Made by a program: the position numbers and the translations under genes. This document shows, piece after piece, positions 4,926 to 4,964 of a stretch of DNA of 9,599 nt. The stretch spans positions 1 to 9,599 of the IMG/VR virus record IMGVR_UViG_2713896901_000003; one strand, 5' to 3'. Source of the stretch: a virus. Taxonomy: Duplodnaviria; Heunggongvirae; Uroviricota; Caudoviricetes. The notes beneath the pieces are model-generated. The model was not told the origin of the DNA, made no database searches, and saw only the letters and a list, made by a program, of their open reading frames with translations. Position 1 is the first letter of the stretch. Every line of letters starts with the position of its first letter.

Positions 4926-4964
4926 GGCTCTTTAACATTGATGGAATGGGGATGATTCGTCCCC
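4926..4964 (+). promoter_or_regulatory. nutL (boxA + boxB) in the PL leader
   Basis: GGCTCTTTAACA (4926-4937) matches the boxA consensus. boxB hairpin GGGGA-TGATTCG-TCCCC at 4948-4964 is identical to the nutR hairpin. Confidence 0.72.

Follow-up and report, generated by a model that had tools for sequence, protein, structure and literature searches.

Pairs of lambdoid N proteins and boxB RNAs are the textbook model for the recognition of an RNA hairpin by an arginine-rich peptide, and are widely used as orthogonal RNA-tethering tools. To our knowledge, only three such pairs, those of lambda, P22 and phi21, are understood structurally. In boxB hairpins of the GNRA-like pentaloop type, NMR has revealed a 5-nt loop of the form G-N-R-(N)-A, in which a G-A pair is sheared and one base is extruded. 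Papers on the diversity of N proteins have noted that divergent N-termini imply new boxB specificities, and go no further than that. The boxB examined in this work is not described in published work on H-19B N, phage L and epsilon34, and a literature search found the hairpin sequence in no paper; databases already label the accompanying protein "transcriptional antitermination N peptide". The N-nut system of this locus is thus one of known kind, and the specificity pair composed of an N protein with an MKARE-type motif (MKARE-N) and its hairpin is undescribed and uncharacterised.

The two nut sites and their surroundings

The window, i.e. the whole stretch of 9,599 nucleotides that was analysed, corresponds by its map of open reading frames (ORFs) to the immunity and early region of a lambdoid prophage, with the plus strand representing the leftward direction of lambda. 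A cI-like repressor gene (3567-4304, plus strand) is flanked on the minus strand by a Cro-like gene (3261-3506), cII (2864-3163, identified by Pfam Phage_CII), an O-like gene (1793-2692) and a DnaB-like replication gene (367-1818). On the plus strand, the order beyond pL is N-like gene, Nmad5 gene, cIII thermoregulator RNA, gam, bet and exo. The Nmad5 domain protein (nucleotide modification associated domain 5, E 3e-70) is encoded by the first gene after N (5328-6011, plus strand), a position that it also occupies in locus L006 and in some E. coli genomes. The thermoregulator, a full-length match to Rfam Lambda_thermo (88.5 bits; 7124-7182, plus strand) upstream of a cIII-like ORF, was the sole confident Rfam match in the window, and neither nut site matched any Rfam family. 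A promoter scan detected a pL-like promoter (TTGACC, 17-nt spacer, TATCTT; 4852-4880, plus strand) whose transcript probably starts near 4887, because the region from 4880 to about 4945 resembles that of phage 21, in which the pL start and boxA-L are annotated. The repressor operators lie around pL (4810-4880), away from the hairpins. A bidirectional terminator-like hairpin (4646-4665; 7 bp, six G-C pairs, T-runs on both strands) separates them from a small membrane-protein ORF (4345-4641), itself located 3' of cI. The window may represent a defective prophage.

The 17-mer GGGGATGATTCGTCCCC occurs exactly twice in the window, at 4948-4964 on the plus strand and at 3216-3232 on the minus strand, with no match in 200 shuffles even when two mismatches were allowed. 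Each copy is preceded on its own strand by GCTCTTTAA (4927-4935, plus; 3252-3244, minus), 12-13 nt before the hairpin. The two propositions of a first-pass annotation of this DNA, that nutL and nutR share an identical boxB and that each pairs it with a boxA-like element, were thereby confirmed. The boxA 9-mer alone was not significant (four matches with at most one mismatch versus 2.7 expected), the significance residing in the combination of boxA, a 12-13-nt spacer, the hairpin and the orientation of the transcript after pL or after cro. When nutL was aligned with nutR, identity was restricted to boxA and to the hairpin with two or three flanking bases, that is, to two short conserved elements within otherwise unrelated sequence, each oriented as its own transcript.

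The nutL site, between pL and N, comprises boxA GCTCTTTAACA (4927-4937, plus strand), which matches the rrn/P22/21-type boxA consensus and carries the boxA label in the records of phages 21, HK630 and mEpX2, and the boxB hairpin GGGGAUGAUUCGUCCCC (4948-4964, plus strand), recognised by the 17-mer search, by folding and by its conservation upstream of MKARE-type N. At nutR, boxA GCTCTTTAAACA (3241-3252, minus strand) begins 9 nt 3' of the cro stop codon, and a boxB of the same sequence as the nutL copy (3216-3232, minus strand) follows in the 97-nt gap between cro and cII. In both transcripts, a CGCUCUUUA-type boxA consensus precedes the hairpin. Of 91 sites across all loci, 87 had a spacer of 12 or 13 nt, counted from the base following CTCTTTA.

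Other hairpins adjoin both copies. Immediately 3' of the nutL boxB is CCAAAG-N9-CTTTGG (4966-4986, plus strand), which we take to resemble lambda boxC (GGCTTTGGG). It is common to the nutL of Gally, Stx2c-EH1904 and Enterobacter prophages and, since phages of several boxB classes have kept it, does not depend on the specificity of N. Between the nutR boxB and cII lies a conserved 7-bp hairpin, ACGCAUC-AACA-GAUGCGU (3191-3208, minus strand), with counterparts at the same place in P22 (GCGCATCAACGAATGCGC; GCGCAUCAACGAAUGCGC) and in Enterobacter prophages. On the opposite strand of the window this hairpin scores as a terminator, with a T-run that is not conserved elsewhere.

Two other identities of the boxB hairpins were ruled out. 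They cannot be intrinsic terminators, since no U-tract follows them (ACCAAAGAG at nutL, ACAAAAAAC at nutR), and a terminator scan of the window did not list them. The put RNA of HK022 is a two-stem structure of about 70 nt that acts without N, in a phage that encodes Nun in place of N. A put-type RNA is incompatible with the single 17-nt hairpin accompanied by boxA, with the presence of an N gene and with the lack of an Rfam match at either site.

The N gene (5120-5326, plus strand) follows nutL, starts with GTG 7 nt downstream of a GGAGG Shine-Dalgarno sequence and encodes 68 amino acids. The motif MKAREIRKLERARKHK forms the extreme N-terminus (residues 1-16). The protein belongs to the Pfam N_peptide family PF25694 (60.3 bits, E 2.7e-16; curated gathering threshold, 27.9 bits), with residues 12-68 aligned to positions 44-100 of the 100-position profile and the motif outside the matched stretch. 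The C-terminus, CLPNVALYAAGYRKSKQLTAR, is a P22 gp24-type tail that is also found in many annotated N proteins.

Pairing of the hairpin with an N motif

In protein-search homologues sharing the motif, whose contigs were taken without regard to the hairpin, the exact hairpin was present upstream of N in six of six. A second protein-first search, carried out in viral contigs with the peptide patterns MKARE[IL]RK and RA..H.. only, gave the same picture: every one of the 39 MKARE-type N loci carried the hairpin upstream of N. boxA was of consensus type in 33 of these loci, carried GTTCTTTAA instead of GCTCTTTAA in four and was lacking in two. Loci L346 (~1480-1535) and L348 (~225-280) keep the nutL spacer and boxB, with boxA replaced by GGCGGGTTTTTTATTGTCC, which resembles the end of a terminator. 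The nutR copies in MKARE-N loci read RGGGAUG-N-UUCGUCCCY. Across these loci the repressor and the replication genes vary, as do the central region of N, its length (68-99 aa) and its tail, which is of P22 or lambda type. Within the motif, M1, K2, R4, E5, K8 and R11 are invariant and A3, R7, L9, A12 and H15 nearly so.

The hairpin was found in none of five loci with other N motifs (P22, 21, Gally, Stx2c-EH1904 and Midgardsormr38). Two of them are particularly instructive. Across pL, boxA and the spacer, Gally and EH1904 are near-identical to the window; they carry UCCCGCCGAAAUGCGGGA in place of the 17-mer, and become near-identical again at the first base 3' of the hairpin and through the boxC-like hairpin. 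In Gally the N motif is likewise swapped, to DDNARNRRRAQRRQ, with the last 50 nt of N still matching the window. The Stx2_EH1904 locus (L003) has an insertion of about 250 nt between the nutL boxB and the boxC-like hairpin (~1590-1850) relative to Gally and the window. This pattern is the one expected of a co-adapted recognition module, and supports a natural swap of specificity modules between near-identical nut regions.

The first-pass annotation had further claimed that the hairpin implies an N-boxB specificity different from that of lambda, in keeping with a divergent arginine-rich motif in the N-like protein, and had called for its presence in homologous phages. These expectations are supported by the genomic evidence: the protein is a PF25694 member with a distinct motif, the hairpin tracks that motif in 39 of 39 loci and in none of the five with another motif, and the hairpins of lambda, P22, phage 21, Gally and Midgardsormr38 all differ from that of the window. 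We consider it very probable that the two hairpins are the nutL and nutR boxB elements of a lambdoid prophage and that hairpin and N motif make up a specificity module of their own, swapped among mosaic phages; with similar confidence, this module would be distinct from those of lambda, P22, phi21 and the Gally type. RNA polymerase departing from pL (plus strand) or pR (minus strand) would transcribe boxA and, 12-13 nt later, the hairpin, to which the arginine-rich motif of N would bind. The consensus boxA would recruit NusB and NusE, N would contact NusA and RNA polymerase through its P22-type C-terminal half, and the elongation complex would then pass the early terminators, rightward into cII and the replication genes and leftward into Nmad5, cIII, gam, bet and exo.

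Natural variation delimits the putative recognition element. Among natural copies, the 15-nt core GGGAUG-N-UUCGUCCC is invariant, with base 8 taking all four values (A at every nutL; U, C, G or A at nutR). The initial hairpin scan held positions 2-7 and 9-16 fixed by design, so that the unbiased evidence for invariance of the core comes from the protein-first searches and from a boxA-anchored scan in which the seven central bases were left free. The latter returned 88 matches for UG-N-UUCG and at most five, mostly one, for any other central sequence. Base 8 is thus in all likelihood non-discriminating, and the invariant core the determinant of recognition. The outer pair of the stem was G-C (7), A-U (7), G-U (2) or C-G (1) across 17 distinct nut-context copies, never mismatched, with a covariation score of 0.166 (0.067 in shuffles) that was reached by 0 of 500 shuffles; sliding the partner column abolished the pairing. 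Only this pair covaries, stem positions 2-7 and 11-16 never varying, an invariance that may stem in part from recent spread.

Fold of the hairpin and competing readings

Beyond the GGGGA/UCCCC stem, two further pairs can form, U6-G12 and G7-C11. Nearest-neighbour energies were -6.4 kcal/mol for 5 bp with a 7-nt loop, -8.3 kcal/mol for 6 bp with a 5-nt loop and -9.7 kcal/mol for 7 bp with an AUU triloop, and the nut hairpin folds reached -11.6 to -11.9 kcal/mol. The inner pairs were predicted with probabilities of 0.99 (U6-G12) and 0.90 (G7-C11) for every natural variant. They show no covariation, U6-G12 and G7-C11 being kept in every natural copy, and natural variation cannot settle the loop size because the inner positions never change. 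The 7-nt loop put forward by the first-pass annotation is therefore best regarded as the minimal reading, an upper bound, given that the energy rules prefer a 7-bp stem with a 3-nt loop; its argument from loop length (7 versus 5 nt) is correspondingly weak. By these energy rules, the free RNA most likely consists of a 6-7-bp stem, U-G and G-C included, with a U-rich loop of 3-5 nt rather than 7 nt.

Loop sequence provides a stronger argument than loop length for distinct recognition. The cap is U-rich and, as a pentaloop closed by U6-G12, would read GAUUC, with C rather than A as its final base; it therefore does not allow the G...A-closed GNRA-like fold of lambda and P22 boxB, and the window hairpin falls outside that class.

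In another reading of the same nut sites, the stem ends after 5 bp and the seven bases UGAUUCG stay open, perhaps as an anticodon-like loop with a U-turn, of which N would read the length and shape. All six fixed loop bases are invariant, as if they were contacted directly and not just paired, a loop can be remodelled when N binds, and the nutR of P22 is itself formally a 5-bp stem with a 7-nt loop in the same energy model. With closure by U6-G12 and G7-C11 favoured by 3.3 kcal/mol and at the probabilities given above, we regard this open form as unlikely.

The specificity module could also be genuine and yet a relic in this prophage, with a short N (68 aa, GTG start) that is inactive and nut sites that are unused. 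The window N is devoid of 12 central residues present in its 80-aa relatives, and its NusA-binding region is accordingly putative. Directly after the N stop codon, moreover, what remains of a lambda/21-type N C-terminus, MTCVGRQKMKLGSKPLI, lies out of frame (5323-5376, plus strand), the overlap with the end of N reading ATGA. In strain SJ2D, a near-identical E. coli genome, PGAP reported this remnant as a partial 'regulator' pseudogene and did not call the 68-aa N. Against inactivity, the 68-aa form is intact in about ten complete E. coli genomes and eight viral contigs, with changes that are almost all synonymous and a stop position that is constant whatever follows; both nut sites are intact and identical, and GGAGG precedes the GTG start. 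In seven close variants, the N reading frame had accumulated 2-6 synonymous versus 0-1 non-synonymous changes, with nearly all changes non-synonymous in the other frame. As judged from these substitutions, the N reading frame is under purifying selection, and a relic appears improbable.

A frameshifted N, a pseudogene or a programmed frameshift, suggested by the conserved tail TCVGRQKMKLGSKPLI in the -1 frame, was considered separately. It was rejected because the gp24-type end of N itself reaches the end of the Pfam profile, because changes are synonymous in the ORF frame and because the DNA following the same stop is unrelated in most close relatives. No slippery heptamer was visible by eye near the end of N. 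The remnant is, from its surroundings, a recombination scar located outside N, and N is complete.

It is very improbable that the hairpin acts in some other way, for instance in cleavage by RNase III or RNase E, in blocking Rho or in pausing through NusA, with N binding elsewhere or requiring no boxB. Other conserved hairpins do adjoin boxB (4966-4986 and 3191-3208), but these are common to other N classes and hence cannot set specificity. The hairpin occupies the exact position of boxB after boxA in nearly all sites, follows the N motif throughout the 39 loci and was swapped jointly with it in Gally, and RNase III would need a stem longer than 7 bp. Scarcely credible is a DNA palindrome for a dimeric protein, operator-like or a recombination site, with no RNA signal: an inverted repeat would likewise keep symmetric changes such as G-C to A-T, but the G-U variants of the outer pair and the invariant U-G are A-C mismatches on the other strand, which argues for a signal in RNA rather than DNA, the centre is asymmetric and always oriented with the transcript, on one DNA strand at nutL and on the other at nutR, and the repressor operators are elsewhere.

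Distribution, island arrays and known nut systems

DNA and tblastn searches of 50,697 deposited phage genome records detected no motif, hairpin or nutL-N module of the window type. A weak match in Erwinia phage Midgardsormr38 proved to belong to yet another class. The module was present in about 10 of 5,426 complete E. coli genomes, and relatives were found in Enterobacter genomes and uncultivated viral contigs. A scan of genome contigs with GGGATGNTTCGTCCC was dominated by chance matches in unrelated phyla, and boxA was absent from all 120 loci retrieved.

A variant of the hairpin, CGGGAUGGUUCGUCCCG, was found outside any prophage immunity region, in an island of E. coli strains such as ETEC H10407. 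The island encodes an integrase, AlpA, an antirepressor, Ash and a DUF5906 primase, and resembles phage-inducible islands or P4. Its 650-nt integrase-alpA spacer holds an array of boxB and boxA elements on the alpA strand (locus L369, NC_017633.1, 8900-9390), made up of a lambda-like boxB GCCCUGGAGAAGGGC, three boxA copies, two copies of the P22 boxB GCGCUGACAAAGCGC, a window-class hairpin that follows a perfect boxA by 12 nt, a boxB identical to that of lambda nutR (GCCCUGAAAAAGGGC), a phi21-like hairpin (CACGC-CUAAUA-GCGUG), a Gally-type hairpin CUGCCGAAAUGCAG and a Midgardsormr38-like hairpin. Next comes a perfect 15-bp hairpin (9351-9385; -20.8 kcal/mol, z -4.7), strong and terminator-like, some 85 nt short of alpA. 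Further arrays were located in L038 (1580-2100), L118 (4830-5400), L370-L375 and L383 (1100-1415). Arrays of related islands differ by whole boxB/boxA modules, and a more distant island (AlpA 81% identical) carries window-class and Midgardsormr38-type hairpins and, between these and alpA, a hairpin that resembles a terminator and has a U-tract. With the motif set used, arrays were detected in 7 of 80 AlpA-first loci. EcCICFT073, the island shown experimentally to respond to lambda and phi80, contained no boxB array; both results speak against a general occurrence of the arrays.

Helper phages induce alpA in Gram-negative phage-inducible islands by way of an inducer that was still unidentified in 2018, and our literature search returned no paper connecting integrase-AlpA islands with antitermination. 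The composition of the arrays suggests that they are nut-site mimics which let the N proteins of several helper phages drive readthrough into alpA, the master activator of the island. If so, satellites would eavesdrop on helper N, a pressure that could help to explain the diversification of N-boxB specificities, and the arrays could bear on the identity of the helper-phage inducer of alpA. They also lend independent support to the 15-nt core as a functional unit, since it is kept intact in a different element beside bona fide boxB hairpins.

Taken together, the window adds a candidate fourth N-boxB pair, in which natural variation delimits the motif to 16 residues and the RNA core to 15 nt. 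We advance only tentatively, as a possibility that we consider rather doubtful as a whole, that MKARE and its hairpin represent a structurally new mode of RNA recognition by an arginine-rich helix and also one N specificity among several copied into satellite arrays. The cap would then be a U-G-closed, U-rich tri- or pentaloop, neither GNRA-like nor of phi21 type, and the pair would provide an RNA-tethering tool orthogonal to lambda N and P22 N.

Among known systems, lambda (boxB GCCCUGAARAAGGGC) has the same layout of early promoter, boxA, short spacer and boxB hairpin, with N just after nutL and nutR between cro and cII as in the window. Its N is likewise a small basic protein with an N-terminal arginine-rich helix from residue 1, and M1, A3, R7, R11, A12 and K14 of the two proteins appear by eye to be in register. 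The single free base in the window loop recalls lambda, where nutL and nutR differ at one loop base. The window differs from lambda in its U-rich loop (G-N-U-U-C / UG-N-UUCG), devoid of the closing A of the GNRA-like pentaloop, in a G-rich stem with an internal U-G, in the lack of a Trp18 equivalent, with a conserved His/Tyr15 nearby, in the P22-type C-terminus of N and in a boxA of full rrn-like consensus. With P22 the window shares a GCTCTTTA-type boxA, the conserved hairpin between nutR and c1/cII and, in gp24, homology to the C-terminal half of N (IDRV..SLAG..CLPNVALYAAGYRKSKQLTAR), although gp24 has about 32 residues absent from the window N, its motif GNAKTRRHERRRKLAIER is unrelated to MKAREIRKLERARKHK, and its boxB hairpins (GCGCUGACAAAGCGC at nutL, CCGCCGACAACGCGG at nutR; loop GACAA) are different.

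Phage 21 (nutL and nutR taken from OL657228.1) offers a precedent for a boxB without a GNRA-like pentaloop (CUCAAC-CUAACC-GUUGAG at nutL). Its pL-boxA-spacer DNA is 95.5% identical to that of the window (4880-4945), up to the base before boxB, and the out-of-frame N-tail remnant of the window is of 21/lambda type. The hairpin, the loop and the N motif (GTAKSRYKARRAELIAERR) nevertheless differ: the 6-nt loop CUAACC on a 5-6-bp stem bears no similarity to UG-N-UUCG. Gally, IME10 and Stx2c-EH1904 form a further class (UCCCGC-CGAAAU-GCGGGA), a boxB class of which we know no characterisation. It is near-identical to the window on both sides of boxB and, in Gally, also in the DNA of the N C-terminus, and differs in the hairpin and, in Gally, in the N motif (DDNARNRRRAQRRQAQREQ); no other natural module swap with the window is as clean.
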